This document shows positions 3,748-54,062 of a stretch of 64,000 bases of DNA, in pieces. The position numbers were made by a program, and so were the translations under genes. Source of the stretch: Pirellulales bacterium (GTDB taxonomy: Bacteria; Planctomycetota; Planctomycetia; Pirellulales; PALSA-1355). The notes under the pieces were generated by a model. That model saw only the letters and a list, made by a program, of their open reading frames with translations, was not told where the DNA came from and made no database searches. Location of the stretch: the NCBI GenBank assembly GCA_963733035.1, contig CAVTBU010000005.1, positions 1,632,001 through 1,696,000 of the forward strand, written 5' to 3'. Within the stretch, counting starts at the first letter, position 1, and every line of letters starts with the position of its first letter.

Positions 3748-3907
3748 GGTTGCAGCCCCATTTCCTAGTGACCGTCGCTCTGCTGGCAGACCAGCCAAGT
3801 CGCGCGGTGATGCCGGGTCGTTTTGATCGCCTTACCGTGGCTCTTGCGAACAGCTACAGCCTATCGCGGCACTTCGCGCGCATCGCGATACCACCCACTG
3901 CCCAAAG

Positions 3908-10446: not shown

Positions 10447-12084
10447 ATGATTGCGACCCCGCTTCGCCCGCTCGACATCGCCGCCGTTCTGGCGTATTTG
10501 CTGGGGATGGCGGCCGTGGGGCTCTATTTCGCACGTCGGAATACCAGCACCGAAGAGTATTTCGTAGGAAACCGGTCGTTCAAGGGCTGGGTCATAGGCC
10601 TCTCGATGTTGGGGACGACCGTCAGCTCGGTCACATTTTTGGCCTTTCCTGGCGATGCCTATGGTTCCGACTGGCGGAACCTGGTGAGTAACCTCACACT
10701 GCCGCTGGTTGCCATTTTCGCGATTGCGTTATTCATCCCGTTCTTTCGCCACGGCAACCTTACCTCGGCGTTCGAGTACTTGGAGCAGCGCTACGGTCCG
10801 ATCGTCCGTTTCTACGGAGTGGCCAGCTTCATCGTTGTACAGCTCATTCGACTGGCGCGAATTCTGTTCCTGGTTTCGCTGCCGGTGGCCCTGCTCACGG
10901 GAGCGTCTCTGTCGACGGTCATCGTCTGCACGGGCATCTTCATCGCGTTCTACACAATCGCCGGCGGAATCGAGGCCGTCATCTGGACCGACGTGGTGCA
11001 GTCGCTCGTTTTACTGGCGGGCGGACTGTTTTGCGTCGCGTTCATCGCGATCTCGCTGCCGGGGGGAATACCTCAGATCTTCGAAGTGGCCTCGGCACAC
11101 AACAAGTTCAACATGGGCGGCTTGAACCCCGAGAGCGAGGACGCGACGGCGAATCCGCGACAGACGTCGGATCCTGGCAGCCGCGTCGAGCCGCCACGTC
11201 GCGACGAATCCCTGCACGACAAGATCGCGTTTTTTCTGTCGAGGAAGACGCTGCTGGTGGTGGCGCTGCTGGGAATTTTCGAATGGCTGACGACCTACGC
11301 CTGCGACCAGACCGTGGTGCAGCGGTACGCGGCGGCCAAATCGATGCGCGAAGCCCGCAAGGCAACGGCCTTGTTTTCAGTGCTGGCCCTGCCGACGTGG
11401 GTGCTGTTCTTTTTTGTGGGCACGTGCGTTTACGTCTACTACCAGGCCTTCCCCGACCCTACCGTCGCGGCCCTCGGGGAGGTGGACGCCGTGTTTCCGC
11501 ATTTCATACTCACGCAATTGCCGGCCGGCATTGCGGGCCTTGTGATTGCGGGGGTACTGGCGGCGGCGATGTCGTCGCTCGACTCGAGCATCAACTCGAT
11601 TGCCACCGTCACGATCGTCGACTTGCTGAAACCATACCTGGCCAAGGGGCGCGACGACCGGTTTTACTTGCGGATGGCTCGCCTGACCGCGACGCTAGCC
11701 GCGGCTTTCATGATCGTCGGGGCGGTCGTTCTGGTCTACATACCAAAAGAAAGCATGAATAGTCTGACGTGGATTGTATCGTCGGTCTTCGGCGGCTGCC
11801 TGGTCGGGCTGTTCATGCTGGGCTTCTTCACGACACGTGTCGACTACGTCTCGGTGGTGATCGCGCTGGTGCCCTCCGTCGCGCTCAATGTGTACTTCAT
11901 GCTGAACGTTTCCGGCTGGCTACCCGCCGGCTTGCGCGTCGGCATCCACGAGTACTGGGTGACGATCCTGGTGAACCTGCTGTTCGTAACGCTGGCCTAC
12001 GCGGTCAGTCTCGTGCGTCGAGGCAAGCCGCCGCCGTCGGGATTGACCGTTTGGACCACCGGCCCACAAGCCGAGCAACCGTGA
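10447..12084 (+). CDS. Sodium:solute symporter (SSS; SiaT-like subgroup)
   Basis: EEYFVGNR, GGIEAVIWTDVVQ, DQTVVQRY and LAAAMSSLDSSINS motifs; many TM helices. Confidence 0.92.
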   Translation: MIATPLRPLDIAAVLAYLLGMAAVGLYFARRNTSTEEYFVGNRSFKGWVIGLSMLGTTVSSVTFLAFPGDAYGSDWRNLVSNLTLPLVAIFAIALFIPFFRHGNLTSAFEYLEQRYGPIVRFYGVASFIVVQLIRLARILFLVSLPVALLTGASLSTVIVCTGIFIAFYTIAGGIEAVIWTDVVQSLVLLAGGLFCVAFIAISLPGGIPQIFEVASAHNKFNMGGLNPESEDATANPRQTSDPGSRVEPPRRDESLHDKIAFFLSRKTLLVVALLGIFEWLTTYACDQTVVQRYAAAKSMREARKATALFSVLALPTWVLFFFVGTCVYVYYQAFPDPTVAALGEVDAVFPHFILTQLPAGIAGLVIAGVLAAAMSSLDSSINSIATVTIVDLLKPYLAKGRDDRFYLRMARLTATLAAAFMIVGAVVLVYIPKESMNSLTWIVSSVFGGCLVGLFMLGFFTTRVDYVSVVIALVPSVALNVYFMLNVSGWLPAGLRVGIHEYWVTILVNLLFVTLAYAVSLVRRGKPPPSGLTVWTTGPQAEQP

Positions 12085-12179
12085 AACACGCGCCGCAACC
12101 GGCGGCGATGATGGCGATCTGAATGCGACACTTTCGGATATCCGCTTGCGGAGGAATTCCTGGCACACAGCCATGACGA

Positions 12180-12310
12180 TGAGCCCCACCTGCAATATCG
12201 ATGGAGCAACTGGACCTGGTCCACGGAGCTGATCAAGGGCGCTTCGTCGGACTTCCCTTCGATGTGGCCGTCTTCGTCGAGACGCATTTGCAGCCGTTCT
12301 ATCAAGAACG
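12180..12310 (-). pseudogene. Possible degenerate IS5-family transposase fragment
   Basis: (VLDR)..ERLQMRLDEDGHIE resembles a segment of IS5-like transposases. Very short; recognised from memory only. Confidence 0.3.
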
Positions 12311-12383
12311 CTCGGTTGATTCGGCTGACGGGGAAGCATAACCTGGGATCACCAATTCCACGGCTTCCTCACGCGGCAAAACG

Positions 12384-13937
12384 ATGACGCTTCAGCGAAT
12401 CAACATCCTATTCTTGCTGCTTTTTGCTGCGATCTGCTGCCAGCAGGCGTGCCTTGGGCAAAATATAACGGTGATGGATCCTCGCACCGCCCGCGTCGAC
12501 CTGCCGGCTCCCGCGCCTCCCAATCCGATCGTGGTCGACAGTGCAAAACGTTTCTTTGCCGATGACTGGATGATTGAGCGTATGGTGCGGCTGACGCGAA
12601 CACTACACCCGATCAAGAAACACCCGGGCAGTCCGCTGTTGAAAGCCGAGATGCCATGGGAAAAGCCGTGCGTGCTGTTATATGGCAGTGTGATGTATGA
12701 TCCAGATCGCCAGGACGACCGGTTTCGGATGTGGTACTTGTGCTTCACGCCCCAATACAATGAGGATTACTCCGAGCGGCTGGCCAAGGATGGCCGGATT
12801 GCGTACGCGATTAGCAGCGATGGCCTTCACTGGAAGCGGCCAAACCTGGGGATTCACGAATACGACGGGAGCAAGAACAACAACATCGTCATTCCCGGTC
12901 CGTGGGGTGTCGCGAGCGTCCACTACGACCCCCGCGACCCGAATCCCCAGCAGCGCTACAAGGCCCAGGTTCGCTACAACGGACATCGCGCCTTCGTCTC
13001 GCCTGACGGCATACACTGGACCGACCGCGGTCCGATGAACTTGAGTGCATTCGATCGAACGTCCGTGCATTGGCATCCGGTTGATCAAAAATGGTTCGCG
13101 AGTACGAAGAACTGGTACAAGGTTCCTGGCGAGGAGGACCAACGCGGTCGAGGGTACGCCGAGAGCGACGATTTCTTTCACTGGGGGCCCGTTTCGTATA
13201 TGTGCGGCACGTCGCCGGACTCGGGTGAGATCGTGTATGGGTTGGAGCCGTTCTACTACGAGAGCATGTTCTTCGGCCTGTGGGACCGCTACCGGCACGA
13301 CCCCGATGGACTGTTAGATGTCCAGCTCGCGGTGAGCCACAACGGCCGGCATTGGACACGCCCCAGTGACGAGGCGTGGATCCCTTTGACGCCGTTGCCG
13401 GACGATTTCCGAAGAGCGACGTCGGCGCGTAGCCCCGAGACCGGCATCGACCCGTTCGACCCACGAGTCCCGTGGGACTATGCGAACAACAGCGGCAGCA
13501 TTCTCGGACCGCTGCGGGTGGGCGATGAGTTGTGGATGTACTACAGTGGCCGCGCGACCGACCATCGCAGCCGACCACACGTAGGAGCGATTGGTCTGGG
13601 GACATTACGACTGGATGGCTTCTTCTCACTCGACGCATCCGACTCGAGCGGTGTTCTGGTTACACGGCCGCTCCGTCTCGTAGGCGATCAGCTACATGTA
13701 AACGCAGATGCCGAAGGGGGAACACTGCGGGTCGCGATTCTCGACGAAGCGAACAAGACCATTGCGCCATACACGCTGGCGAACTGCCCACCCATTTCGA
13801 CGGATAGCGTTCGGCACCGCATCGAGTGGAACGGCGCGTCCGATCTGAGCGGAGTCGTTGGCAAGACGGTCCGCCTGAAGTTCGAGCTGACGCGCACCGC
13901 ACTATACGCAATCTGGACCGGCGAAGAACGCCGCTAG
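12384..13937 (+). CDS. Secreted GH32/GH43-like five-bladed beta-propeller protein of unknown specificity
   Basis: Signal peptide; repeats SSDGLHW, SPDGIHW, SDDFFHW and SHNGRHW; C-terminal RLDGFFSL...LHVNADA beta domain common in planctomycetes. Confidence 0.7.
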   Translation: MTLQRINILFLLLFAAICCQQACLGQNITVMDPRTARVDLPAPAPPNPIVVDSAKRFFADDWMIERMVRLTRTLHPIKKHPGSPLLKAEMPWEKPCVLLYGSVMYDPDRQDDRFRMWYLCFTPQYNEDYSERLAKDGRIAYAISSDGLHWKRPNLGIHEYDGSKNNNIVIPGPWGVASVHYDPRDPNPQQRYKAQVRYNGHRAFVSPDGIHWTDRGPMNLSAFDRTSVHWHPVDQKWFASTKNWYKVPGEEDQRGRGYAESDDFFHWGPVSYMCGTSPDSGEIVYGLEPFYYESMFFGLWDRYRHDPDGLLDVQLAVSHNGRHWTRPSDEAWIPLTPLPDDFRRATSARSPETGIDPFDPRVPWDYANNSGSILGPLRVGDELWMYYSGRATDHRSRPHVGAIGLGTLRLDGFFSLDASDSSGVLVTRPLRLVGDQLHVNADAEGGTLRVAILDEANKTIAPYTLANCPPISTDSVRHRIEWNGASDLSGVVGKTVRLKFELTRTALYAIWTGEERR

Positions 13938-14124
13938 AGCCTTGTTCTTGCTGGCCCGCGGACGCCGCCGCATGGGTGTCTGGGAGTTTCGACTTCGTCT
14001 TGGTCCGGTTTGGATGGTGGCTTTCCCATGGATGTCGGACCGAAGCGTGCTCTGTTGCAAGAAATTGAGAGTCGCGTACGGAGGGCTTGGTCGTAGAACT
14101 GCGACATTCTCGCCAGACACCGCA

Positions 14125-15496
14125 CTAGCTGGCGCCGCGGAATTGCAGAATCACGCTGGCAACCACGCACGTGCCGATGATTGCCACTGACAATAGAAGC
14201 AGCGCGGCAGTGGGTTTGCTCATCTGCACGCGACGATCGGTGCGAAAGGCCATCCAGCAAATTGCCACCATCAACAACGGTGTCGTCAACAAACCCGAAA
14301 AGTATTGTCCGAAGATCACCAGCCTCTCCGGCGCGGGGCCCGCCAGGAAGATGATGCCCAGAAACGCCACCAGATACACCGACTGCACGGCCCGCCAACA
14401 TCGTCGCTGCACTGTGGCGTCGCCGCGGCTGATCCAGCCGAAGCTTGCCAGCATGTCGCACCACATGCGGGCGAACGCGGCCGTGCCCACGATCAACGTC
14501 GAGAATAGCGTGCAAAGGGCGCCAGCCAGGAACAGGTCTTTGGACCACGCGCCGTAGGTGCTCGTGTACATCGAAGAGAGACGCTCGATGATCCCGTCGC
14601 CGGTCAGTTGTTCGTTTCGTCCGTAAAATACGGCGCCGCCGATCAAAAAGTAGCCCAGCGTCGTCACGGTGGCCAATGCCGTGCAGGTGAACACGTCGAC
14701 CTGCAGCACGCGAATCCAACCGCGCGCGACGCAGCCAAGCGTCGTCGTCACCCGTCCCCACGTGTTTGGCGTAGCCTTTTTCCAGAACCCAATAGGGGTA
14801 CATGAACAGTTCGTTTCCGGTCGCCCCAAGCGCACCCATCAAGCTCACCACCGCAACCGCCGCCAGATGAACGTCGTTCTTGCCAAACGAAAATGTCATC
14901 CCGGACAAAACTTGCTCGCTGCTGATGCGAAACGTCGTGCCTTGAATCAGCACCAGTCCAACCACGACGCTCAGGCTGAAAACGCCCACCAACACACCGA
15001 TCATCTTTTCCAGGACGTTGTACGTGCCGCGCCACAGGATCACGAAGGAAACGGCGAACACGACGAGCGTCCACAAGTCGACGCTGCGGGACTCGGCGGT
15101 CGAAAACGGCAGGACCACGTGCAATAGCCCGGCCGTGGCGCGGAGAATACCGGCGAGCGACGCCGCGGTAAGTAACGATCCGAGCACGAACACGGTTCCG
15201 ATCCACGACGTGCCGCGCCATTTCGGGCCCGGCAGCGCGTTGAGCGCGTCAAACGGAGTTCGATTGTGCACTAATGCGTGGCGGCCGATTTCAACCTGCA
15301 GAAAGCACTTGAGGATGCAGGACAGGAGCACCGCCCAGAGCAGCACGAAACCAAATCGCGCCGCCTGCACGGGCGTGTTGATTAGCTCGCCCGAGCCAAT
15401 CACGGAACCTGTGACGACGATTCCCGGCCCAATGGCCAATAGAATTCCGCCGGGCCGTGTTGGCGCCGGCAAGTATCGTTCGCTTGGGTTGCTCAT
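14125..15496 (-). CDS. Nramp/YcsG-like membrane permease (frameshift near 14720)
   Basis: IGPGIVVTGSVIGSGELI and YPYWVLEKGY motifs. ...AWLRRAR continues as GWIRVLQVD in ORF 14125-14835 after a 1-nt slip in a CG repeat. Confidence 0.8.
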
Positions 15497-16326
15497 CCGC
15501 CCGATGATCCCAGTTGCGGTTGCCTGGCAATCGGTCGCCCATTGGCTGGCGTCGACTGTGCCGCCCGCAACTGTTCAACCGCGGCCTTCGCCGCGTGTTG
15601 CAAGTGAATTTCGTCGGTGGCGTAGGAAGCGAAACGCATTCCACGTGCGATCCAATCGGAAACCGTTGACATATCCGGCGAAATAATGCCAGGTGCGACG
15701 CGGCGCCGGTCGGCCACCTCGATCAGCCGCTCGACGGCGCCAACGGCCTGGGGGTGCCGCAATTGTCCGGCGATGCCCATATCGACGGTCAGATCCATAA
15801 AACCCAGACAAGCGACGTCGACGCCGTCGATTGCCAGCATCGCCTCGAGATTGTCGACGGCCTCTCGTCGTTCGATCTGAATCACCAGCAGCGTTTCTCG
15901 GTTGGCCGCTCGAATGAATTCATCGATGTCCACAGCTCGTCCGTCGGTTTGGGCCGTAGTGCAGGCAAACCCTCGCACGCCGTCGGGCGGATAACGAACC
16001 CAGCTCACGATCTGCTCGACCTGTTGGGGCGTATTCACGCGGGGCACGATCACTCCTCGGGCCCCGGCATCGAGCACGCGAGCGATGAAGGCATATTCAG
16101 CCTGCGGAACGCGCACGATGGGCACAATATCGGCCACGCGCACTGCCTGGATCATGTCGGACACCGTTTCCATGCTGAAACTGGTGTGTTCCATGTCGAT
16201 AAACGCGAAATCGAAACCAGCCGTCGCGTAGATACGCGCAATGTCCGGCGATCGCAACCTCGAAATCTCGCTGCCGAGGGCAACTCCGCCAGCCCGCAGA
16301 GTACGTTTGACTTGGTTTGGTTTCAT
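15493..16326 (-). CDS. HpcH/HpaI class II aldolase family protein
   Basis: GFDFAFIDMEH, PIVRVP, LDAGARGVIVP, RYPPDGVRG and IQIE motifs. Confidence 0.92.
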   Translation of the reverse strand: MKPNQVKRTLRAGGVALGSEISRLRSPDIARIYATAGFDFAFIDMEHTSFSMETVSDMIQAVRVADIVPIVRVPQAEYAFIARVLDAGARGVIVPRVNTPQQVEQIVSWVRYPPDGVRGFACTTAQTDGRAVDIDEFIRAANRETLLVIQIERREAVDNLEAMLAIDGVDVACLGFMDLTVDMGIAGQLRHPQAVGAVERLIEVADRRRVAPGIISPDMSTVSDWIARGMRFASYATDEIHLQHAAKAAVEQLRAAQSTPANGRPIARQPQLGSSGG

Positions 16327-16408
16327 GGGGACCTGCGCAGTTGACCTATGCGGATAACAGACGACCGTCAGCTTGATGTCTTGAGACTAAGCGGCGGCTG
16401 AGTTTGGT

Positions 16409-17833
16409 TCAAGCGATCAATCCCGGCAGCAGGACTCCGCGCGATGCGGGAAGCGGTCGGCCTTGGGAATCGTGAAGCTCCGCGTCCGGCGGAACTCCCA
16501 GCAGGTGCAGAATCGTCTGCGCCAGGTCGTGAGGAGCCACGGGGTGTTCGTTCGGTTCGGCAGCCGTGCGGTTGGAGGATCCAAATAAACTGCCTCCGCT
16601 AATTCCGGCTCCGGCCAGCAAAATCGATTGCACGTGCGGCCAATGGTCGCGCCCGGCGTCTTGATTGAGCCGCGGGCTGCGCCCGAATTCTCCCATCACG
16701 ACCACCAGTGTATCGTCCAACAAACCGCGCTCGTCCAGATCCGCGAACAGCGCTGACAGCGCTCGATCCGTGGGAGGCACCAGGCGCTCGCGCATGTGGT
16801 GATAGATTCGACCGTGCGAATCGTATTCTCCGCCCCCTGGCCCCGCTGGTTCTGGATCGATCCAATACACGGTCGCCAGCCGAACGCCCGCCTCGATCAG
16901 TCGGCGCGCCAGCAGCACACCCTGCCCGAACAGGTGCCGGCCATAGCGGTCACGCGTGGCGTCTGACTCGGCGTGCAAGTTAAATGCGTTACGCACATCC
17001 GGTGAGCTTAGCAGCGAGAAAGCTTGTTCGTAGAAAGTCGCCAGATGATCGAACGGGCCACCGAGCGGCCGGGCCGGCGTACGTCGATTCAATTGCGCCA
17101 ACAATGAGTGTCGACCGCCGAGCCGATCCGCGTTCACTTCTCCCGGCAACGCCAGCGCCGGCGCCGAGAACTCGGCCGTCTGCTTGTTTCCTTGCGCGAC
17201 GAACGGGTCGAACTGCCGTCCCAAGAAGCCTGCGTTCTGGCCCGGCCAGATGCCGTCGACCGGCGGCGCTTCAAACAGCCTGGGCATGGTTACGAAAGCC
17301 GGCAGTCCGCGATCGGCGCCGCGAAATTTCGCGACAATGGAACCCAAGTGCGGATGGTCCGTCGGCAACGCGCGGGTTTGATCCACGATCGGCGTGCTAT
17401 GAATCGTGCCGGTCAGCATCGTGTAAACACCCGTGGTGTGCACCGAGCAGGGGTGAGTCACGGAACGCACGATCTTGAATCGATGGACCTGTTGGGCCAA
17501 CAGCGGCAACAGCTCGCTGATTTGAATGCCCGGCGTGTTGGTGGCGATCGGCTTTAGTTCGCCGCGAATTTCGGCAGGCGCCTCGGGCTTCATATCCCAA
17601 AGGTCAAGTTGAGATGGTCCGCCGTTGAGAAATACCAGGATGCAGCGCTTTGCGCGGCCGAACGATGCAGGCATAGACGACGCGCAGGCCGGTTGAGCGC
17701 GAATCAGCGACGGCAAACCAAGTCCCATGCCACCCAGCGCCCCCAGCCGCAGAAACTCGCGGCGGAACCAGTGTCGCGCAATGCGTGGCGACTGTGGTGC
17801 GTGTTGCACGGCGTTTTCGCGCTGAGGTGTCAT
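16409..17833 (-). CDS. DUF1501 domain protein (Tat-like leader)
   Basis: RREFLRLG, GGPSQLDLWDMKP, GEFGRSPR and GRDHWP motifs. Confidence 0.92.
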   Translation of the reverse strand: MTPQRENAVQHAPQSPRIARHWFRREFLRLGALGGMGLGLPSLIRAQPACASSMPASFGRAKRCILVFLNGGPSQLDLWDMKPEAPAEIRGELKPIATNTPGIQISELLPLLAQQVHRFKIVRSVTHPCSVHTTGVYTMLTGTIHSTPIVDQTRALPTDHPHLGSIVAKFRGADRGLPAFVTMPRLFEAPPVDGIWPGQNAGFLGRQFDPFVAQGNKQTAEFSAPALALPGEVNADRLGGRHSLLAQLNRRTPARPLGGPFDHLATFYEQAFSLLSSPDVRNAFNLHAESDATRDRYGRHLFGQGVLLARRLIEAGVRLATVYWIDPEPAGPGGGEYDSHGRIYHHMRERLVPPTDRALSALFADLDERGLLDDTLVVVMGEFGRSPRLNQDAGRDHWPHVQSILLAGAGISGGSLFGSSNRTAAEPNEHPVAPHDLAQTILHLLGVPPDAELHDSQGRPLPASRGVLLPGLIA

Positions 17834-18489
17834 TGTCTCGTCATCCGGGAGACCTGCAGCTCCATCGAACGAACACAGTGCTGGCGCATCGCCTCCTCGG
17901 CCCGCTGGGCGTCGCGGGACTGGATCTCCTCGACCAGATGCACATGCTGCAGCGCCGGCCGCTCGACATCATGGGCCAGCATGCTGCCGCGTGCGAGCAT
18001 GCGTACCAATTGATTTGCCCGCAGCACTTCGACCAGGATTGCCGTGCCAGCCAGTTCGGCAATTTGCAAGTGAAACTGGGAGTCCAAACCGTGGATCTGG
18101 TCTGGTTCGGCATGCGAATCGATCCGGCGATCGAGCTCCGTCGCCAGGTTGAGCAACTCGGCCAGTTGGGCATCGGAAGCGGTTGTCGCGCAACGACGGG
18201 CTGCCTCGCATTCCACCGCTGTGCGTAGCACATGTTGACCGCGCAGCGCGTCGGCAGTCATCTTCCGCACACGTGTCCCCCAGCCAGGCTCGCTTTCCAC
18301 TAGTCCATCACGCGATAACTCACGCAGTGCCTCGCCGACAGGCGCCATGCTCATTCCCAGCGAGTTGGCCATGCCGCGGAGCGAGAGACGTTGCCCAGGC
18401 TGTAACCGCCCGGCGAGGATTTGATCGCGGAGCTCGAAGTAGGCTTGCCGGCTTAGCGTAAGCGATTTTGTTACATCAGCTTGTGGCAT
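17830..18489 (-). CDS. GntR/FCD family transcriptional regulator
   Basis: wHTH (ILAGRLQPGQRL...PVGEALREL...GTRV) plus FCD domain (DSQFHLQI...HVHLVEEI). Confidence 0.92.
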   Translation of the reverse strand: MPQADVTKSLTLSRQAYFELRDQILAGRLQPGQRLSLRGMANSLGMSMAPVGEALRELSRDGLVESEPGWGTRVRKMTADALRGQHVLRTAVECEAARRCATTASDAQLAELLNLATELDRRIDSHAEPDQIHGLDSQFHLQIAELAGTAILVEVLRANQLVRMLARGSMLAHDVERPALQHVHLVEEIQSRDAQRAEEAMRQHCVRSMELQVSRMTRQ

Positions 18490-18534
18490 CAGGACTCACG
18501 TTTTTTGGGTCGCGTACTTGCAACGTTCGATCAG

Positions 18535-18544
18535 TGTTATAACA
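18535..18544. promoter_or_regulatory. Palindrome TGTTATAACA, candidate GntR operator
   Basis: Perfect 10-bp AT-rich palindrome in the divergent gntR/DUF1501 spacer; near-copy TGTTACATCA at 18469-18478. Confidence 0.55.
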
Positions 18545-18608
18545 TAGGCGTTAGCCCGCCCAATCGTCAACCACCAGCCAGCCGGAATTCTTCGATCCAG
18601 GTTTCACA

Positions 18609-20098
18609 ATGACCGATCCACTTGGCAACCCCTTGCCCGAACCAGAGGGTATTAGCCGCCGCCGCTTTCTGCGGGCTGGACCGGCCGGGCTCGCGGCATT
18701 GGGTGCTGCCAATCTATTCGACCCGGCGGCGGCGATGGCCTCGGCGGCATCCCACAAGCCGCGAGCAAAGTCGGTCATTATCTTGTACTTGTATGGCGCG
18801 CCGAGCCAGATGGACACGCTCGACCCCAAGCCGAACGCGCCGCTCGAGCGGCGCGGCGAGTTCAAGTCCATCTCCAGCAGCCTGCCCGGCATTGCCGTTT
18901 CTGAGCTGCTGCCCAATATCGCGAAGAATCTTCACCGCGTCGCGCTGGTGCGTTCAATGACGCACACGTCCAACAACCACGCGGTTTCGGTGGCGCTGTC
19001 TGGCTTGTCCAAGTCGTTGCCGGAAATCGAAGGGAACGGGCGTGACCCACGGCATCAACCCTATATTGGCTCGGTGCTTGAGTACTTGTGGAAGCAACAG
19101 GGCATCAGCATGCTCGACAGCGGCATCCCGGTGAACATGGTGCTGCCCTGGGCGCTCAACGAAAAGACCGGCCCCGGACGCTGGCAACACGACGGCGCAT
19201 GGTTGGGATTGCAGTACAACCCGATCATTCCGATGTTCGTTGGCAAAGGTTCGCTTGAGGTCGGCTCTCCGTCGATCGCGGGCAGCACGCCGATCCTGAC
19301 GCGTTTCGATCCCTGGGATGGGATAACTCCCGAAAGCACGTTTCAATTCGAGGGGACGGATTTCCCAGCAGGCGTTTCCGCGTCGCGATTTGCACGCCGG
19401 CAGGAGTTGCTTCGGTCGCTCACGGTCGCCGAGCGCCGGGTCGGATCGGCCGTGAACACGTTCGATCAATGCCGCGATTTGGCCTTTGCCATGATTGCCA
19501 ACCCCAAGGTCGCGCATGCGCTGGACGTGACGCGTGAACCGACTTCGGTGCGCGAGAAGTATGGCTGCACGTTATTTGGCCAGTCGGCTTTGACGGCGCG
19601 GCGACTCGTAGAAACCGGCGTGAAGTTCGTTACGGTTTTCTGGGACACCTGGACCGACAACAATGCCGCCTGGGATACGCACCACAACCATCATCCCCGT
19701 CTAAAGGACGGACTCTGCCCCAAGCTGGACCAGATCCTCCCGGTATTTCTCGACGACATGGAGCAGCGAGGGCTGTTGGACGACACCTTGGTCATGGTCA
19801 TCAGTGAGCACGGCCGGACGCCCACTTTGGGAAACTCGCCTGGCGGAGGTCGCGAACATTGGGCGGGCACTATTGGGGCATGTTCTTTGGCGCCGGAATC
19901 AAAACGGGCCAGGTAATCGGCTCGACCGACCGAGACGGGGGATATCCGGCGAGTTGTCCGACGGACCCGAAAGATATCCTGGCAACGATGTACCACCTGC
20001 TTGGCTTCGACCCGCATTACACCACGGTTCCCGACCGGCTCAACCGACCCATCCACATCATTCCGCATGGCGAGGTTGTTCGGCAGCTCTTGGAATAG
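18609..20098 (+). CDS. DUF1501 domain protein (frameshift near 19870)
   Basis: SRRRFL Tat motif, GAPSQMDTLDPKP, WDTH and SEHGRTP. The C-terminus (YWGMFFGAGIKTGQVIGSTD...) is in ORF 19859-20098. Confidence 0.88.
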
Positions 20099-20117
20099 GC
20101 CGGCGTGGTGAGCCGTT

Positions 20118-21146
20118 TCATTGGCCGACTGTGACGACGACGCGGCCAGGAGCGCCGCCTTGGCGAACCACTTGGAACGCGTCGTTGATGCGATCCAAGG
20201 AGAATCTCGCGACAATCGGCGGACGGATCACTCGATCAGCCATGAACTGCAAGGCATCGCGCACGTCTTGCATGCCGCCGTTGCGCGAGCCGAGGATTCG
20301 CAGCTCGCGCTGTGCGATCGAGATCGTGTCGATCGCCGGGAATTCAGCCTCCTCGCCGACGACGATAATCTTGCCACGTCGACGCACGAGCTTGGAGGCC
20401 AGTTTCATTGTCGCCGACAAGCCGACCAACTCGAACACCGTATCGGCTCCATCCGCTTCGCGGCCTACGACGTTCTGAACCTTCCGCATCAGGGCCTCGT
20501 CGTCGGCCGACAAGGCCAAAATGGCGCCCGAATCCATCGCCAGCTTTAGACGATCGGTCGATCGGTCAATCGCGATCGTTCGCACCCCCGCGGACGACAA
20601 AAGCTGCACAAGAATCTGACCGATACCGCCAGTGCCCAACACCACGGCAGTGTCACCCCACGAAAGCTGGGCCGTGCGAAAGGCGTGTACGGCCGTGCTC
20701 ACAGCGCAACTCGTCAAGCCTCCGCAATCGAAAGGCACTTCGTCCGGCAGCACCAACAGGTTGCGCACGGGGGCCTTGAAGAATTCTGCAAATGCCCCCG
20801 GCAAGGTGACGCCGAGAATGCCCGTCAAGTGCATCGCCTGGGCGTCGAGGCCACGACGCGAAAAGCGGCACTCGGCGTTGCGCACAAACAAATGCGGCAC
20901 AACCGGCTGCCCCACCTCGAAATCCGCCACGTTGCTCCCTACGCTGGCAACGACTCCGGCCGGCTCGTGCCCCGGAATGTGCGGCAATTGTGGCACGTAG
21001 GCCAAACCCTCCTGGATGTGCAGATCGGTCCGGCAGATGCCGCAGGTGCGCGTTTCGACAAGCACCTCGTCCGGCCCAATCTCAGGGATTGGAACGTCGG
21101 CAATACGCAGCGGACCGCCGACCTGTGTCAAAGTTGCCGCTCGCAT
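20118..21146 (-). CDS. Zn-dependent medium-chain alcohol dehydrogenase
   Basis: CGICRTDLH, GHEPAG and GTGGIG motifs. Start placed at MRAATL. Confidence 0.9.
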   Translation of the reverse strand: MRAATLTQVGGPLRIADVPIPEIGPDEVLVETRTCGICRTDLHIQEGLAYVPQLPHIPGHEPAGVVASVGSNVADFEVGQPVVPHLFVRNAECRFSRRGLDAQAMHLTGILGVTLPGAFAEFFKAPVRNLLVLPDEVPFDCGGLTSCAVSTAVHAFRTAQLSWGDTAVVLGTGGIGQILVQLLSSAGVRTIAIDRSTDRLKLAMDSGAILALSADDEALMRKVQNVVGREADGADTVFELVGLSATMKLASKLVRRRGKIIVVGEEAEFPAIDTISIAQRELRILGSRNGGMQDVRDALQFMADRVIRPPIVARFSLDRINDAFQVVRQGGAPGRVVVTVGQ

Positions 21147-21229
21147 GCGATTCTCAATGCTCCCAAAAGCTTCGCGGAAGTCCCCGGATGGGAACCCCGT
21201 ACCAAAGGAGTTCACCCGGCGGTTTTGAT

Positions 21230-22054
21230 TCAGGTCGTCGTTGCGATTCCCAACTCGCGCTCGATACTTTGAATCGATTCCACATTGCGCCGCGCACCGT
21301 CTTCCAGCAATGGGTAGCCGTATAAGTCGTTTGTCAGCGTGCCATCGAAACTGATACCCTTTAGCGCATCGACGACGGCCGTGAGCCGCAACACGCCGTC
21401 GCCCAGCGGCAAATGGAGTGCATACGTCTGTCCGTCGCCGTCCGCCAAGTGGACGTGTCGAATCCGCGAACCGAGTTGCGCGATCGAGTCGACGTACGTA
21501 TCGGCTTGGCCGACGCCATAGTGACAGGAGTCGTACAGCAGTCCGACCGCGCCCCGCGGCATTCCCTCGGCCACTGCGTCGACAAAGTCAATTGCCCACG
21601 AGTTCTCCATGCTAAGTGTGTCGGGATGCGGCTCGAACACGAGGTGCAAATCGCGATCCACGCACCGGGCGGCAACGCGGCGAAACAAATCGACGTTCGT
21701 GCGCAGGCACTCTCCCGGTCGACGATGGGCATTCACTGCCGCCCACGGGTCGTGACTGATGATCATGCCAAGCTGCAAATCGGCGGCCCACTCAATCGCC
21801 CGACCAAAGTCCGCCAGCGTTTCGTCAAACCGATCGTATGGTTGGACGTCGACCCAGCAGTCGAAGCCGTAGAGGCTCAAACCAATTTCCCTTGCCCAGG
21901 CGGCAAAGCGGCGGCGTAGGCCTGGCGTCTTCAGCTGGTCGTAAAACGGCGGCCGCGAGACTTCCAGCGAATCGAAACCAGTCGCCCGCACGAGTCGACA
22001 GATCGCCTCGATGTTCGGGTTTTCGTGAAAACTGACGGCGTTGATGCGGGCCAT
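21230..22054 (-). CDS. Sugar phosphate isomerase/epimerase (xylose-isomerase-like TIM barrel)
   Basis: [21 protein letters not shown] and HLPLGDG motifs. Confidence 0.85.
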
Positions 22055-22090
22055 GCGTGCCTCGCTGCAATGCGATGAAGTATCAACCGA

Positions 22091-22984
22091 CTACGCCGCG
22101 GCCGGCCAAATCATCGCGCGGGCTTCGTCTGGTGTGGCAACTTCGCGCCCTAGTTCGCGCGAAATGCGTGCGATTTTCTCGACCAGCTCCGCGTTGCTGC
22201 GGGCGTACTGCCCGGCCGCGACAAACGGATTGTCTTCCATCCCCACGCGCACGTGCCCGCCCAGAATGATGGCCGTGGTCAGCACTTTCCATTGTTCCTG
22301 GGGGTCCATGACGCTGGTGTTGTAGAGGAAGCCAGGCGGCAAATGGTGATGATTGAAGAGCATTGCTTCGGCGGTCGGTGGCGTGTAGCTGCCGCCCCGC
22401 CAACCGAGAAAGAACGTAATCCAGACCGGCGCCTTGAGCAGGCCCTTTTGTACCATTCTCTGTGCGTTCCACACGCCGCCATAGTGGAAGCACTCGGCCT
22501 CGATTTTCACTCCCAGCTCGGCCGTCGCGCGGCAGTATTCCTCGAGCTCGGGACGATTGTGCAGACCATAGAGCTCCACCGGTTCGCGTCCCGGCTCATA
22601 GTCAAAACACTCGTCGTGTGGATTGAAACAGGTCGAAATCATATCCGGCTTTTGCTCGCACATCAGCACCTTGCGCTGAGCGAATCGGCCGTTGGCAATG
22701 CCGTATTGAATGATCGGGTTGACCGAACAGTTTTCGACGATGTCGCGGCGCAACTTTTCCCAGCCTGGGATGTCGAGATCCGAAAGCCGCGTCCCATCCG
22801 CCTGAATCGTTTCGTCAATTGTGTAGGGACCGTGCAGGTGGCAAATCGACGCCCCGGCGCTCACGCTGCGTACGTATTCGCGCGCGACCTCCTCGTAGCC
22901 CTTGGGCGTTGGGTTGTGCGGGTTGCTGGGATAGGCCATCGTCGAGTCGCACGTCACGGTGATGATCAGTTTGTCCACGGTCAT
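22091..22984 (-). CDS. Beta-keto acid cleavage enzyme (BKACE/DUF849; 3-keto-5-aminohexanoate cleavage family)
   Basis: KLIITV, AGASICHLH (HxH metal motif), GGHVRVGMEDN and REVATPDEAR motifs. Confidence 0.92.
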   Translation of the reverse strand: MTVDKLIITVTCDSTMAYPSNPHNPTPKGYEEVAREYVRSVSAGASICHLHGPYTIDETIQADGTRLSDLDIPGWEKLRRDIVENCSVNPIIQYGIANGRFAQRKVLMCEQKPDMISTCFNPHDECFDYEPGREPVELYGLHNRPELEEYCRATAELGVKIEAECFHYGGVWNAQRMVQKGLLKAPVWITFFLGWRGGSYTPPTAEAMLFNHHHLPPGFLYNTSVMDPQEQWKVLTTAIILGGHVRVGMEDNPFVAAGQYARSNAELVEKIARISRELGREVATPDEARAMIWPAAA

Positions 22985-23014
22985 CGGCTCCTGATAGATT
23001 CTCTTGGCGGGTCA

Positions 23015-24124
23015 TCAGATGGCGCACTCGCGATCGCCGGCGGCAGCTATGCCCTCAACGGCTTTCCGCCCTACCGGTGCCTCCGGTGTGGGCACGGTCA
23101 ATTCGTCGCCCAGGGCGACCAACTCGTTCCAAGCCGCCGCATCGATGTCGATTCCGCCGCTCAGTCGTTCATTCCGCCGGCGGTGCTCCAACTCACCGGG
23201 AACAATGATTTCGGCGAATCCCGGAACCAGCGAGGATGACTTGACATGCGCAATCAACTCGCCGACGTGCGTGCGGAATCGGTCGAGACCACCGAACTGT
23301 GCAACATCGACGGCAATGAGCAGCATTCCGTCACGCGCTTCGACGTCATCCGCACTGCAGCATCCGGCACCGGACAAGGCGCCTGCCAATACGTCGACCA
23401 TTAGCGCCAGCCCGAACCCCTTGTGGCCGGCGGCCCCACCCAAGGGCAATATCGCACCGGCGGGAGAATGGTAGAACTCGGCGGCGTCGTTCGTCGGCCG
23501 GCCTTGGGCATCGATGAGCCAACCGTCGGGCGTGGGCCGGCCTTGTTGGGCCAGAGCGCGGATCTTTCCTTCTGGCGCGACGCTCGTTGCCATATCCAGG
23601 ACGAGCGGGAATGTGTCTCCGGGAACGGCGATCGAAATCGGATTGGTCGCCAGGCGGCGATCCGACCCGCCGAACGGCGCCACGGACTGTCCACCGCCCC
23701 CGGCGTTGACCAGGGCAATTCCCGCCATGCCTGCCGCGGCGATCGTTTCGGTGTAGCTGCCGATTCGGCCGGTGTGGTAACAATTCCGCACCGTTGCAGC
23801 CGCAATTCCGCCTGCGCGAGCCTTCTCCACGACGATGTCGACGGCACGCGCGGCGGAGACCTGTCCAAAGCCCCGCGCACCATCCACGATTGTGCACCCT
23901 GTCGTTTCGTGAACCACGCGCGGTATGGCGTGGACGTCGACTTCACCCGACCGCACGGCGGCCACGTACTGGGGCACGCGCCGCACTCCATGCGAGTCGT
24001 GGCCGCACAGGCTGGCATCGACCAGGTGGCGGGCGACGAGCCCTGCGTCGGCCGCGCGAACTCCGACGGCCTGCAGAAGTGCGACGACAAACGGCTCAAG
24101 CGAGTTGTGCGAGACCAGCGGCAC
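23015..24124 (-). CDS. Ldh_2 family (malate/lactate/ureidoglycolate-type, YbiC/HcxB-like) oxidoreductase
   Basis: GHDSHG, HTGRIG, TNPISIA, LDMATS and GHKGFGL motifs. Start placed at GTG 24124. Confidence 0.9.
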   Translation of the reverse strand: MPLVSHNSLEPFVVALLQAVGVRAADAGLVARHLVDASLCGHDSHGVRRVPQYVAAVRSGEVDVHAIPRVVHETTGCTIVDGARGFGQVSAARAVDIVVEKARAGGIAAATVRNCYHTGRIGSYTETIAAAGMAGIALVNAGGGGQSVAPFGGSDRRLATNPISIAVPGDTFPLVLDMATSVAPEGKIRALAQQGRPTPDGWLIDAQGRPTNDAAEFYHSPAGAILPLGGAAGHKGFGLALMVDVLAGALSGAGCCSADDVEARDGMLLIAVDVAQFGGLDRFRTHVGELIAHVKSSSLVPGFAEIIVPGELEHRRRNERLSGGIDIDAAAWNELVALGDELTVPTPEAPVGRKAVEGIAAAGDRECAI

Positions 24125-24315
24125 GGCAACCACGATGCATGAGACAGCCGACGACCCCCGCTGCGCCGGCGCAGGACTCGAACTTAGCGGCTGGGCATGC
24201 CTCACGCAAGGCTTTAAGCGTTCAAAAACTGACTTTTCTTGCTAAAATGCAACGTCGTTCCTGTTGCGGGGTGATTCCCCGCGCCTTTGCCAAACCGCAA
24301 GTGAAGGTACTGTAC

Positions 24316-25272
24316 GTGACCTCCGAGAACCGCGCGTCTTTGACTGACAAAGTTTATCAATATCTCTCAGGGCAATTGGCCGGACGTGCGCTCGCGATCG
24401 GAGATCGGATTAACCCGCGCGCCGTGGCCGAACAACTCGACGTCAGCCGTACCACGATCAACAAGGCACTGGCTCGGCTCGAAGCCGAGGGCTGGTTGAC
24501 CTCAGACGACGCACGTCGCCCGATCGTAACGAAGCGACCGGGCAAGCGTCGGGCCAGCCCCGCGGCGAATTTCGAGTTTTCGAATCGTACCGACGCAACC
24601 TACGAGGCAATTCTCGAGCGCATTTTGAAAGGGGAGTTGCAACCAAGCGAAATCGTCAAGGAACGACCGCTTGGGCAAACTCTCGGAGTGAATCCGGCCA
24701 CGGTGCGCCGCGCGGCCGAGTGGTTGTGCAACGACGGACTCATGGAACGGCTCCCGCGCCGCGGTTGGCGCGTGGCGACTGTTTCCGCGCACGACCTCAA
24801 GGACATCTACCAAATCCGGGTGTTGCTGGAACCGCTGGCGATCAAGGGCACCGTGGCGCGGATGTCGGATGAAGTGCTGGCTGACCTCGAACGAGAAACC
24901 CGACGTCTAATAACTCAGGGAGAAAAGGCCACGGTTTACGATCGTCGCCGCGCCGATCTCCGTTTTCATCAGGCGATCGCCATGACATCGGGAAATCGCA
25001 TGCTGGCGGCGACGATCGAGCCGCTGGTCCGCAAGGCCCTGCTCGTAACGACCGTGGGTTTCCGTTATGGCCGGGCGTCGCAGTCCTTCGAAGAACATCT
25101 GGATATTCTCCGCGCGCTCAAATCGCGCGATGGGGCGCTGGCGGCCAAGCGGCTCAAGAGCCACCTTCGCCAGGCACAGAAGTTCAATCTCGAATTGTGG
25201 GAGCGACAGTCGCGATTCCCGTTAGTGGCTGACGACAGTCGCAGCGGACCGCCCGGGCGCGGCATCACTTGA
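24316..25272 (+). CDS. GntR family regulator with two tandem wHTH domains + FCD
   Basis: wHTH1 SLTDKVYQYL...VSRTTINKALARLEAEGWL; wHTH2 TDATYEAILERI...VNPATVRRAAEWLCNDGL; FCD ADLRFHQAI...EEHLDIL. Start approximate. Confidence 0.85.
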   Translation: MTSENRASLTDKVYQYLSGQLAGRALAIGDRINPRAVAEQLDVSRTTINKALARLEAEGWLTSDDARRPIVTKRPGKRRASPAANFEFSNRTDATYEAILERILKGELQPSEIVKERPLGQTLGVNPATVRRAAEWLCNDGLMERLPRRGWRVATVSAHDLKDIYQIRVLLEPLAIKGTVARMSDEVLADLERETRRLITQGEKATVYDRRRADLRFHQAIAMTSGNRMLAATIEPLVRKALLVTTVGFRYGRASQSFEEHLDILRALKSRDGALAAKRLKSHLRQAQKFNLELWERQSRFPLVADDSRSGPPGRGIT

Positions 25273-26322: not shown

Positions 26323-26653
26323 CAAAACGCCTCGCGAATCGAAGGTTGCTCGCTTGCCCATACGCCCGCGGCCCCCGGGGGTCGCGCGGCGACCGCGCCG
26401 GGTTCTCGATGCGACCGGTTGCCAGCTGACAAGTATTGCTAAAAATCCGTTGGTCTACAATCCACGCGAGGAATTGAGCGCCATGAGCGTGGTTTTTGAG
26501 AGCAAGCGATAGAGCACTGGCGGCCGGCAGATTCCAGTAAGTGCTCGGCGAAGCCCGCCTCCTGGTTCGCGTGAAAGTCGATCGTCTGAACGCCGGTAAC
26601 GGCGAGAACTTCCGGCGGCAGATTTGGCGGCCATGAGAGATCCAAGAACGCGG

Positions 26654-30373: not shown

Positions 30374-30384
30374 GGTCCTTGCCG

Positions 30385-53900: not shown

Positions 53901-54062
53901 CTTTCGCGACGCGCTGTCTGGCCCGTGGCAAGCAAAACAATTGTCGGCCAAAATCGGCCGCACCTGGCGGTTGTAGCCGATCGCATCGTCGGCCCGCGAA
54001 GTGGAAATGGAGACGAACCATCCAACGACCAGGGCGACCGTCCAACAGCAGCGCCGTAGCAT
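50904..54062 (-). CDS. Planctomycete cytochrome c/PSCyt2/PSD1 (DUF1549/DUF1553) protein with LamG-like insert (frameshifts near 52240 and 52115)
   Basis: CFACH and CAVCHDHKFDP heme motifs; NPIDEFV, WLDAARYAD, PTHPELLDWLA and TPLQALVTLND. Confidence 0.9.

Follow-up and report, generated by a model that had tools for sequence, protein, structure and literature searches.

A conserved, predicted catabolic gene module around a divergent BKACE-family enzyme in Pirellulales-type Planctomycetota

The question raised by the locus described here is whether a run of enzyme, transporter and regulator genes forms one catabolic unit and, if so, what kind of compound that unit degrades. The genes lie around positions 10447-25272 of a 64,000-nucleotide stretch of DNA from a Pirellulales bacterium (NCBI GenBank assembly GCA_963733035.1, contig CAVTBU010000005.1, positions 1,632,001 to 1,696,000), and this whole stretch is referred to as the window. 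The genome comprises 6.6 Mb in 10 contigs and is 92% complete, and its relatives, as named in public records, are Pirellulales-type Planctomycetota. A first-pass annotation had proposed a single uncharacterised catabolic locus that combines a β-keto acid cleavage enzyme (BKACE) with an HpcH aldolase, an Ldh_2 dehydrogenase, a Zn-dependent alcohol dehydrogenase (Zn-ADH), an isomerase and two transporters. Judged by gene content and gene order, the window carries a rearranged copy of a conserved ten-gene catabolic module of soil and freshwater Pirellulales-type Planctomycetota.

The gene map was drawn from a listing of open reading frames (ORFs) and from Pfam and NCBIfam profile scans of the window. 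All genes named in the first-pass annotation were found where it had placed them, but a second DUF1501 gene and a cyclase-family gene just beyond its right-hand end had been missed. One operon runs on the minus strand from an Ldh_2-family NAD(P)-dependent 2-hydroxyacid/2-oxoacid dehydrogenase gene (23015-24133, ORF to 24205) through the gene for a BKACE/DUF849-family Zn enzyme (22091-22984) and a xylose-isomerase-fold TIM-barrel metalloenzyme (21230-22054; Pfam AP_endonuc_2, 92.8 bits) to the Zn-ADH, a medium-chain dehydrogenase (20118-21215, probable start ATG 21146; ADH_N 85.7 and ADH_zinc_N 71.8 bits). The other operon, also on the minus strand, begins with GntR1, a FadR-type regulator with a winged helix-turn-helix and an FCD domain (17830-18489; Pfam GntR 58.7, FCD 62.3 bits). 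It continues with DUF1501a, a member of the alkaline-phosphatase/sulfatase superfamily (16409-17833; Pfam DUF1501 318.6 bits plus a weak Sulfatase match), an HpcH/HpaI class II (metal-dependent) pyruvate aldolase (15493-16326) and an Nramp-fold permease. The two four-base ATGA overlaps reported for this operon are real: the DUF1501a start overlaps the GntR1 stop at 17833-17830, and the second overlap lies at 15496-15493. DUF1501b (18609-19916, plus strand; Pfam DUF1501 197.1 bits) sits between the two operons and is divergent from GntR1. The cyclase-family (PF04199) gene occupies 25411-26361 on the minus strand (Pfam Cyclase 74.8 bits).

The relatives of the window BKACE were obtained from a pattern scan of species genomes, and the best 80 of 104 were kept as loci. 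Partner genes were counted by tblastn with the window proteins within 10 kb of the BKACE orthologue at a query cover of ≥50%, and 23 planctomycete loci with ≥5 kb on both sides served as a second sample. The counts rest on tblastn because crude ORF calling on high-GC loci gave antisense ORFs that masked genes, an 'antiBKACE' cluster being one example; ORF clustering was used for gene order only. The ADH was found near BKACE at 48/80 loci (20/23 in the full-flank planctomycete sample), Ldh_2 at 39/80 (15/23), the isomerase-fold gene at 35/80 (21/23) and HpcH at 31/80 (12/23). DUF1501 was present at 20/80 (15/23), the cyclase gene at 17/80 (9/23), GntR1 at 14/80 (8/23) and GntR2, the regulator divergent from the Ldh_2 operon, at 5/80 (3/23). 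The grouping therefore exceeds chance, since the partners recur beside BKACE orthologues elsewhere. A lack of co-occurrence in other genomes had been named in advance as the observation that would speak against a common unit, and the counts show the reverse.

Gene order leads to the same view. At three loci (L040, L043, L044) the genes are co-directional in the order GntR1, BKACE, isomerase-fold gene, ADH, DUF1501, HpcH, Nramp, Ldh_2, cyclase, and at two more (L030, L034) the order is nearly the same. The cyclase gene is the last gene of this fused operon in L030, L034, L040, L043 and L044, the Nramp-like gene lies inside it in L030, L040, L043 and L044, and GntR1 and a DUF1501b orthologue diverge in L043 and L044. 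Because other Planctomycetota carry the fused operon, we read the window as holding the same ten genes as two operons plus the cyclase gene. The earlier idea that the two operons form one uncharacterised catabolic unit is thus upheld by partners that recur across the 80 loci and by the single operon of L040, L043 and L044. Genomes of the same family repeat the ADH-isomerase-BKACE triad, and the isomerase-fold gene adjoins BKACE at every one of the 35/80 loci that have it.

The BKACE subfamily around which these genes gather is sharply bounded by sequence and spans at least six phyla. Its orthologues are 60-94% identical, whereas all other BKACEs encountered are ≤35% identical. The 80 loci come from Planctomycetota, Verrucomicrobiota, Latescibacterota, Gemmatimonadota, Poribacteria, Acidobacteriota, Alphaproteobacteria and one Marinobacter, and cultured carriers include Oricola indica, Pelagibacterium lacus, Microvirga zambiensis, Sinorhizobium americanum and Rhizobium giardinii. 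A protein collection gave 3182 BKACE matches, of which the top 120 clusters were all ≥70% identical; the source-named matches belong to Planctomycetota, Verrucomicrobiota and Acidobacteria. Only 2/541 records of a plasmid collection matched at 61-62% identity, both from Sinorhizobium americanum, and the next best reached 34.7%. Within the Planctomycetota the distribution is patchy. A close BKACE orthologue was found in 9/60 relatives (7/32 of the same family, 0/3 of the same genus) and in 1/400 other genomes of a phylum-wide sample. The window BKACE is the only BKACE gene of its genome.

Outside the fused operon the companions of the BKACE gene vary. A second planctomycete layout (L053, L054, L056, L063) keeps GntR2 divergent from Ldh_2-BKACE-isomerase-ADH together with HpcH, has a CUT2 sugar ABC system instead of the Nramp-like gene, and adds an M24 protein and an FAH hydrolase. 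Alphaproteobacterial loci carry IclR regulators, SMP30 lactonases, SDR, GMC or GFO dehydrogenases and CUT1/CUT2 ABC or TRAP transporters, along with more distant ADH, Ldh_2 and HpcH genes, while acidobacterial loci have CUT1 ABC, M24, GFO and SDR genes. Rhizobial plasmid loci combine FAH, an FAD oxidoreductase with ETF, a PRISE-type reductase, a CMD protein, a cyclase-family protein and an NMT1-type ABC system. One of these, L106, is Sinorhizobium americanum CCGM7 plasmid A, 339976-364839, a conjugative plasmid with a BKACE orthologue of 61% identity; its gene set resembles a phloroglucinol-type logic more than a sugar pathway. GH116 glycosidase genes stand beside the module in L049, L050, L051 and L055, which represent three lineages with up to three copies per locus, and L051 and L055 also have a RhaT-like permease gene. 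The GH116 neighbours hint at a glycoside as substrate source at these four loci. A literature search on BKACE, Kce and DUF849 found no description of this gene set.

The left-hand boundary of the unit is a separate matter, since the first-pass annotation had assigned all of 10447-25272 to a single locus, with a nonulosonate-like sugar acid or a modified aldonate as the suggested substrate. That reading included an SSS symporter (10447-12084, plus strand; Pfam SSF 139.2 bits, TIGR00813 215 bits) and a secreted protein with a five-bladed β-propeller and a β-sandwich (12384-13937, plus strand; no Pfam or NCBIfam family). The description of the latter as a secreted propeller was borne out by its AlphaFold2 (AF2) model (pLDDT 91.4), which has an N-terminal signal-like helix, five blades and a C-terminal sandwich. 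The two genes adjoin the others in the window, the 1-7 kb past the end of the locus hold a BNR_2 sialidase-like gene and sulfatases, and a language-model atlas puts the propeller nearest BNR_2 clusters (score 0.93). Against this, neither SSS nor propeller accompanies a BKACE orthologue at any of the 80 loci (0/80, and 0/23 in the full-flank sample), and no close propeller orthologue was found in the 60 relatives, which include nine BKACE carriers; at E≤1e-80 only the window's own genome among 61 had it. Its Foldseek matches are GH43, GH130 and GH32 folds and not sialidases, and PF00251 is present in one distant homologue. There is no aldolase, epimerase or kinase for nonulosonates, and nothing points to such compounds. 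We regard the one-locus reading as highly unlikely and treat the SSS and propeller genes as a separate unit beside the module. The propeller has hundreds of homologues, mostly unnamed, with the source-named ones mainly from Planctomycetota, and its model suggests that it is probably a glycoside hydrolase or a glycoside-hydrolase-like protein of an unnamed family.

Three proteins of the module are predicted to be exported. DUF1501a has a twin-arginine (Tat) signal with an RREFL motif followed by a hydrophobic stretch, and its Tat-signal paralogue DUF1501b has an RRRFL motif. A pattern search found the twin-arginine motif in 21/27 members of the DUF1501 cluster, the other six being of RRQFF, RRHFF or RRTWL type. 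The cyclase-family protein has an N-terminal hydrophobic signal or anchor, hydrophobic N-termini are shared by the planctomycete proteins of the family, and signal-like N-termini together with the motif IGQMGTQ[MF]DGLGH were seen in 9/15 members of its cluster; its only PDB match is 5ibz, an uncharacterised protein (E 4.8e-23). DUF1501a orthologues that are 58-68% identical lie 1-3 kb from BKACE in L030, L031, L034, L035, L040, L042, L043, L044 and L046, and DUF1501b orthologues of 62-86% identity occur in L026, L028, L041, L042, L043, L044 and L047.

To our knowledge DUF1501 is one of the most expanded families of the Planctomycetota and has no known function, and our search for literature on DUF1501/DUF1553 returned genomic surveys only. 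The module proteins are like the DUF1501 members of the planctomycete DUF1501 / PSCyt-DUF1549-DUF1553 gene pairs in being Tat-signal proteins typical of the phylum. Unlike those pairs, the two DUF1501 genes of the module have no PSCyt partner and lie inside, or divergent from, a metabolic operon, which gives DUF1501 a defined metabolic context. In L030, L034, L040, L048 and L052 the module also has DUF1501-PSCyt pairs of the canonical kind at its flanks.

The 'permease' of the first-pass annotation is present, but its Nramp identity and a frameshift had gone unnoticed. The ORF as called (13934-15496, minus strand; Pfam Nramp 52.6 bits) encodes 520 residues, and beyond about residue 255-259 the product is Arg/His-rich and without hydrophobic segments. 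Five intact orthologues of 451-496 residues match 15496-14720 in one reading frame and continue at 14727-14128 in the neighbouring one, so the gene extends over about 14125-15496 with a shift at 14720-14727, and the 520-residue ORF is an artefact of the frameshift. With the NCBIfam Nramp_1 model (NF037982, cut-off 50) the N-terminal half of the window protein scores 79.3 bits and the intact L040 orthologue 117.4 bits. In an alignment of the orthologue with the solved Nramp structure 10ky, GSGE stands in place of DPGN, and Ala in place of the Met of MPH. We take the Asp and Asn of DPGN in transmembrane segment 1 and the Met of MPH in segment 6 to be the metal-coordinating residues of Nramp transporters. 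By its score the permease belongs to the Nramp family, but by these residues it would lack the hallmark of a metal transporter.

The frameshift raises the possibility that the locus is a decaying remnant and the module no longer functional in this organism. The shift hits the only transporter gene of the module, split or truncated ADH, Ldh_2 or BKACE genes are seen in the related genomes G007, G032 and G047, and the BKACE orthologue was not found in the three same-genus genomes. However, all the remaining module genes are intact, and the window holds at least four more genes split in a like manner, each broken into neighbouring or overlapping ORFs of a single Pfam family: AcrB (43975-47579), DUF1501 (49369-50840), PSCyt/DUF1549 with DUF1553 (50904-54062) and transglutaminase-DUF2126 (54428-57497). 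This pattern suggests frequent indel errors, or real frameshifts, in the assembly. A soil-metagenome contig that covers 14563-14795 with seven mismatches (97% identical) has two extra bases behind 14720, exactly at the shift, which join the reading frames. It is a single, short contig of depth 2.6 from a slightly different strain, and soil-metagenome coverage of 13900-16400 is partial and consists of short low-depth contigs only. The contig indicates that an intact form of the permease exists in a near relative and is no proof for the window's own strain. We consider decay very unlikely as an explanation of the locus.

The cytoplasmic partner enzymes can be placed in families but not assigned substrates. 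HpcH belongs to PF03328 (119.1 bits, cut-off 25) and matches 3qz6 best in the PDB (E 1.3e-42); its best NCBIfam scores are 167.6 against a cut-off of 368.8 for HpaI, 139.7 against 393 for GarL and 124 against 441 for rhamnonate aldolase. Ldh_2 (PF02615, 365.5 bits) reaches 283.2 of 336 bits for PRK10098, 231.5 of 500 for sulfolactate dehydrogenase and 134.2 of 316 for 3-dehydro-L-gulonate 2-dehydrogenase. Its PDB matches are 1v9n, 2g8y and 2x06, the nearest being broad 2-oxoacid reductases and sulfolactate dehydrogenase, and its start is likelier a GTG near 24133 because homologues align from residue 25. A role for Ldh_2 as a diketogulonate reductase of an ascorbate pathway was considered and set aside, being without further support. 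The Zn-ADH scores 153.8 bits against 349 for PRK13771, 145.9 against 380 for TDH and 129.1 against 450 for IolM, and the nearest solved structures are the classical tetrameric ADHs 1rjw and 1llu.

The isomerase-fold protein diverges strongly from named families. Its best NCBIfam score is 31.4 against 300 (IolO), and its best PDB sequence match is 3wqo (E 3e-5). The AF2 model (pLDDT 95.9) finds ketose 3-epimerases, IolI, the isomerase Art22, the keto-glucal hydratase AtHYD, the dehydroshikimate dehydratase AsbF and UlaE as top matches in a Foldseek search of the PDB, all at ≤18% identity, with TM-scores of 0.75-0.80 to ketose 3-epimerases, IolI and UlaE. Nine residues are invariant (E141, H143, D175, H178, H202, D205, D207, H214 and D243). 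By modelled fold and metal-binding residues the protein fits a xylose isomerase-like TIM barrel (PF01261), and it may be an isomerase, an epimerase or a dehydratase, its resemblance to the structures listed being about equal. No enzyme of the gene set reaches an NCBIfam equivalog cut-off, and PDB searches with Ldh_2, HpcH, ADH, the isomerase-fold and the cyclase-family proteins gave family-level or uncharacterised matches and no substrate. The first-pass view that the substrate is not readable from the sequence stands.

The BKACE-family enzyme itself was examined residue by residue. It scores 171.6 bits with PF05853 (cut-off 24.8) over profile positions 1-272 of 274, and far lower than the cut-offs of the NCBIfam models for Kce (141.1 vs 382), 3,5-dioxohexanoate transferase (118.5 vs 430) and 3-oxoadipate transferase (83.9 vs 350); a PDB search gave family-level matches only and no substrate. 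The alignment of the orthologue profile with solved structures is confident only for residues 145-291 and a short N-terminal piece, and segment 50-145, which holds an invariant HDECFDY motif, has no counterpart in solved structures. Invariance was judged over 23 orthologues. The Zn site is kept, with H49, H51 and E250 of the window protein, all invariant, corresponding to His48, His50 and Glu247 of BsfD. R246 is kept as well. The invariant E164 lines up with the Glu that precedes the canonical Tyr by two residues in 2y7d and 9zsc, and the corresponding E171 of PdKce is described as the catalytic base (PMC11961710). The DUF849 family is described as including a 'non-BKACE' group that lacks the catalytic residues, and it also holds a cis-epoxysuccinate hydrolase (PDB 5zmy). 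The window protein is not of the 'non-BKACE' kind, because its Zn ligands, Arg and catalytic Glu are kept.

From these parts a pathway can be proposed. The module probably acts on an esterified compound of acid-sugar or cyclitol-like type. Outside the cytoplasm the two DUF1501 proteins, acting as hydrolases, and the cyclase-family protein would strip ester or similar groups from this anionic sugar- or cyclitol-like compound, and the Nramp-fold permease, as the only transporter of the unit, would import the trimmed product. Conversion of this product to keto acids in the cytoplasm, by oxidation and by isomerisation or dehydration, would fall to the Zn-ADH, the isomerase-fold enzyme and Ldh_2. 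The BKACE-family enzyme would then cut a β-dicarbonyl (β-keto acid) intermediate by Claisen-type chemistry with acetyl-CoA, as in the deoxyribonate pathway, and the HpcH class II aldolase would split a 4-hydroxy-2-oxo acid into pyruvate and an aldehyde. Two FadR-type GntR regulators would control the two transcription units. Taken as a whole, with the canonical acetyl-CoA-dependent cleavage, we hold this proposal tentatively and put its chances somewhat short of even.

Several observations weigh against it, most of them on the canonical cleavage. An invariant Phe166 replaces the canonical Tyr (Tyr145 of CcaKce, Tyr173 of PdKce), which the literature takes to interact with the CoA sulfur. Phe at this position is also reported for BsfD and RaKce, and BsfD acetylates its substrate without a retro-Claisen step (bioRxiv 10.64898/2026.01.15.699783). 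The CoA-contacting Arg226 and Lys254 of BsfD align with Gln/Glu and Ala/Pro here, which is weak evidence. Genes for handling acetoacetate were likewise not detected: searches of the window's genome (92% complete) and of five other carriers (70-96% complete) gave neither a PF01144 CoA-transferase nor an above-cut-off match to acetoacetyl-CoA synthetase, and the window's own genome gave no acetoacetate decarboxylase. In 14 control genomes PF01144 was positive in 6/14 and the synthetase model above cut-off in 0/14, so only the PF01144 result discriminates, as the synthetase model passes in no control genome. Thiolases were present in the genome search, and the planctomycete operon has no thioesterase or CoA-ester enzyme. 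Other steps of the proposal are affected too. The Nramp-like gene is frameshifted in the window's assembly, a Gln of the cyclase motif stands at what we take to be the metal-binding His positions of that family, and we infer the order of the cytoplasmic steps, because the isomerase-fold, Ldh_2 and ADH proteins reach no equivalog cut-off. The canonical acetyl-CoA-dependent reaction is thus not assured, given the Tyr to Phe replacement and the lack of acetoacetate-activating genes among those found. Two different C-C cleavage chemistries, as had been suggested for the locus, remain plausible with this reservation on the BKACE side.

The same residues and missing genes suggest that the BKACE-family protein might instead run a different Zn-dependent step in a non-phosphorylative (deoxy)sugar-acid route that ends at HpcH. 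It could dehydrate or hydrate a hydroxy acid, cleave a 2,4-diketo acid by hydrolysis or CoA thiolysis, or carry out a C-acetylation, with the ADH and Ldh_2 finishing the aldehyde or hydroxy-acid product. Phe166 is shared with an enzyme that stops after acetyl transfer, the family contains both the hydrolase 5zmy and the 'non-BKACE' group, and acetoacetate-activating enzymes were not found in the six carrier genomes. The neighbourhoods have L-rhamnose/L-fucose-type enzymes (SDR or GFO dehydrogenase, SMP30 lactonase, HpcH aldolase), a neighbouring FAH hydrolase scores 254 bits with the 2,4-didehydro-3-deoxy-L-rhamnonate hydrolase model, which is below the equivalog cut-off, and the ADH is closest to ordinary alcohol/aldehyde dehydrogenases. 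Neither the recurrent clusters of neighbours nor the fused operon, in which every gene is labelled, shows a classical aldonate dehydratase; the scan did not take in every single-copy neighbour and could have overlooked one. On the other hand, the Zn ligands, Arg and catalytic Glu of true BKACEs are all kept, and the missing acetoacetate enzymes come from family searches in incomplete genomes. At some proteobacterial loci (L062, L070, L074, L080) an AMP-binding CoA ligase and an acyl-CoA dehydrogenase lie beside the orthologue. We place this route on the unlikely side. The broader claim, that the subfamily marked by Phe166 and HDECFDY does something other than acetyl-CoA-dependent cleavage of a β-keto acid, as the key step of an undescribed sugar- or cyclitol-like acid route fed, in Planctomycetota, by exported DUF1501 esterases and an Nramp-fold organic-solute transporter, is in our view possible but doubtful. 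If true, it would give DUF1501 its first physiological role and the Nramp fold a non-metal substrate.

The four proteobacterial loci just named belong to three Methylobacteriaceae and one Beijerinckiaceae. Here the BKACE orthologue follows an AMP-binding ligase gene and a gene for a BrkB-family membrane protein; an acyl-CoA dehydrogenase is nearby in L062 and L074, and an aldehyde dehydrogenase and a transketolase-like gene in L062 and L070.

The cyclase-family gene brings in a further alternative, in which the substrate is carbocyclic and would be a cyclitol of inositol type or a reduced phenolic, for example a dione like those derived from phloroglucinol. Dehydrogenases would give a cyclic 1,3-diketone, the cyclase-family protein would open the ring by retro-Claisen hydrolysis, and a dehydrogenase would form the β-keto acid for BKACE. 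The phloroglucinol pathway is described as having just such a combination of a 'cyclase'-family C-C hydrolase, a dehydrogenase and a BKACE. The 17/80 loci with a cyclase gene beside the BKACE orthologue include rhizobial ones with an enone-reductase-like PRISE/epimerase, CMD and FAH genes. Similarities to cyclitol enzymes recur below threshold: the ADH to IolM (129 bits), and the isomerase-fold protein to IolO and IolE and, as the second Foldseek match, to IolI; among the partner proteins, a GFO resembles IolG (144 bits) and a binding protein the rhizopine SBP (102 bits). These are all far below the family cut-offs, however, and the BKACE reaches only 118.5 of 430 bits on the 3,5-dioxohexanoate model. 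The planctomycete cyclase-family protein has a signal or anchor and so would not act mid-pathway in the cytoplasm, it has Gln at the presumed metal-binding His positions, and the thiolase plus CoA-transferase of the phloroglucinol cluster are missing. A carbocyclic substrate is improbable on this evidence.

The regulator GntR2 (plus strand, 24247-25272, ORF from 23794) has two GntR winged helix-turn-helix stretches (89.8 bits) and an FCD domain (81.1 bits). Its start is most likely ATG 24247 and not 23794, because homologues of about 300 residues match only residues 179-471. Orthologues that are 50-60% identical take the same divergent position in L053, L054, L056, L063 and L065. GntR1, where present (14/80 loci), is usually directly upstream of BKACE. 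A palindrome, TGTTATAACA, lies at 18535-18544 in the divergent intergenic region between GntR1 and DUF1501b and is a candidate operator of the FadR-type GntR1. It is the only window match at ≤1 mismatch (expected 0.28; 26/100 shuffles reach one match). The perfect palindrome is found upstream of GntR1 in three genomes, namely at the window, at 9539-9548 of L016 (G007), where it has the same intergenic place as in the window, and at 633-642 of L036. A k-mer and palindrome script found no motif common to the two divergent promoter regions.

Around the module the window holds a variety of other genes. Upstream of the locus, 6296-9445 encodes a 1049-residue Ser/Thr kinase with TPR repeats, and 1-3798 encodes a protein of more than 1265 residues without a Pfam family that runs off the window start. 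Downstream of the module the profile scan identified two sulfatases (26654-28402, minus strand, and 30379-31647), the BNR_2 sialidase-like protein (32167-33282) and a PfkB sugar kinase (38160-39116). Farther on are a GFO/IDH/MocA oxidoreductase (58014-59330) and a second, unrelated xylose-isomerase-fold gene (60838-61593).

How does the module compare with described systems? For function discovery the BKACE enzymes serve as a test case, and the uncharacterised subfamily described here sits in sugar-type clusters and not in lysine or carnitine contexts. Lysine-fermentation and carnitine genes are indeed lacking at the locus, as the first-pass annotation had said, but its list of classic BKACE contexts was incomplete, since oxidative deoxyribonate catabolism and phloroglucinol degradation have also been described. 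The metabolic operon is the best available handle for the functions of DUF1501 and of the Nramp-fold permease, and the cultured carriers make the question testable at the bench. It must be added that uncharacterised catabolic clusters of known enzyme families are common.

In the oxidative 2-deoxyribose/2-deoxyribonate pathway of Pseudomonas simiae, Paraburkholderia and Burkholderia, a dehydrogenase oxidises the sugar acid to a β-keto acid, which a BKACE then cleaves, and the gene cluster also encodes a lactonase, transporters and a regulator (Price et al., bioRxiv 10.1101/205583). The proteobacterial loci of the window-BKACE orthologues are like these clusters in having IclR, SMP30 lactonase, SDR and a sugar-type ABC transporter. 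The deoxyribonate dehydrogenase is described there as an SDR, whereas the window has a Zn-ADH and Ldh_2, and the pathway is described without a xylose-isomerase-fold enzyme, HpcH, DUF1501, a cyclase-family protein or an Nramp-like permease. Burkholderia-type BKACEs from the plasmid search are only about 31% identical to the window BKACE. The pathway depends on glycerate kinase and on acetoacetate/acetoacetyl-CoA enzymes; the acetoacetate enzymes were not found in the module carriers, and Pfam detected no SDR or lactonase in the window. The resemblance is in logic only.

The anaerobic phloroglucinol pathway of Clostridium scatologenes (PGR-DPGC-TfD-TAL) makes two successive C-C cleavages and uses a ring-opening C-C hydrolase that belongs to the cyclase family, NAD(P) dehydrogenases and a BKACE (PMC10470551). 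That BKACE is given as a close Kce homologue, unlike the window protein, which falls well short of the 3,5-dioxohexanoate model. According to the same text the cluster has a thiolase and a CoA-transferase, whereas PF01144 was not found in the window's genome, and its cyclase-family hydrolase is cytoplasmic and Mn-dependent, whereas that of the window is predicted to be exported and has Gln at the presumed metal-binding His positions of the family. No phloroglucinol-reductase-type SDR was found in the window.

Canonical BKACEs and the window protein are both TIM-barrel Zn enzymes and share the His-x-His and Glu ligands as well as the Arg and the catalytic Glu; they differ in the Tyr to Phe replacement and in the lysine-fermentation context, which the window lacks. 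Closer in this respect is BsfD of flavophos biosynthesis (PDB 9zsc), a DUF849 enzyme that has Phe at the canonical Tyr position as the window protein does, and that shows how the family can stop after acetyl transfer and perform non-canonical reactions (bioRxiv 10.64898/2026.01.15.699783). BsfD differs from the window enzyme in other ways. It is described there as biosynthetic and phosphonate-specific, it is only moderately similar (92 bits with the orthologue profile), and its Arg226 and Lys254 are not conserved here.

The non-phosphorylative L-rhamnose and L-fucose pathways have an aldolase branch with an HpcH/YfaU-type enzyme and a diketo-hydrolase branch with an FAH enzyme. The surroundings of the BKACE orthologues are like these in the recurrence of HpcH, FAH hydrolase, SDR, lactonase and sugar ABC genes. 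They are unlike them in that no enolase-superfamily or IlvD-type aldonate dehydratase was found among the neighbours scanned, and in that scores stay below equivalog cut-offs. We know of no role for a BKACE, an Ldh_2 or an isomerase-fold enzyme in those pathways.

All the enzyme families of the module are known, and its logic has precedents in the deoxyribonate and phloroglucinol pathways. Set beside these systems, the module is of value for its BKACE subfamily, which has clear limits, occurs across phyla and includes cultured carriers, for giving DUF1501 its first metabolic setting, and for an Nramp-fold permease that is predicted to be a non-metal one.

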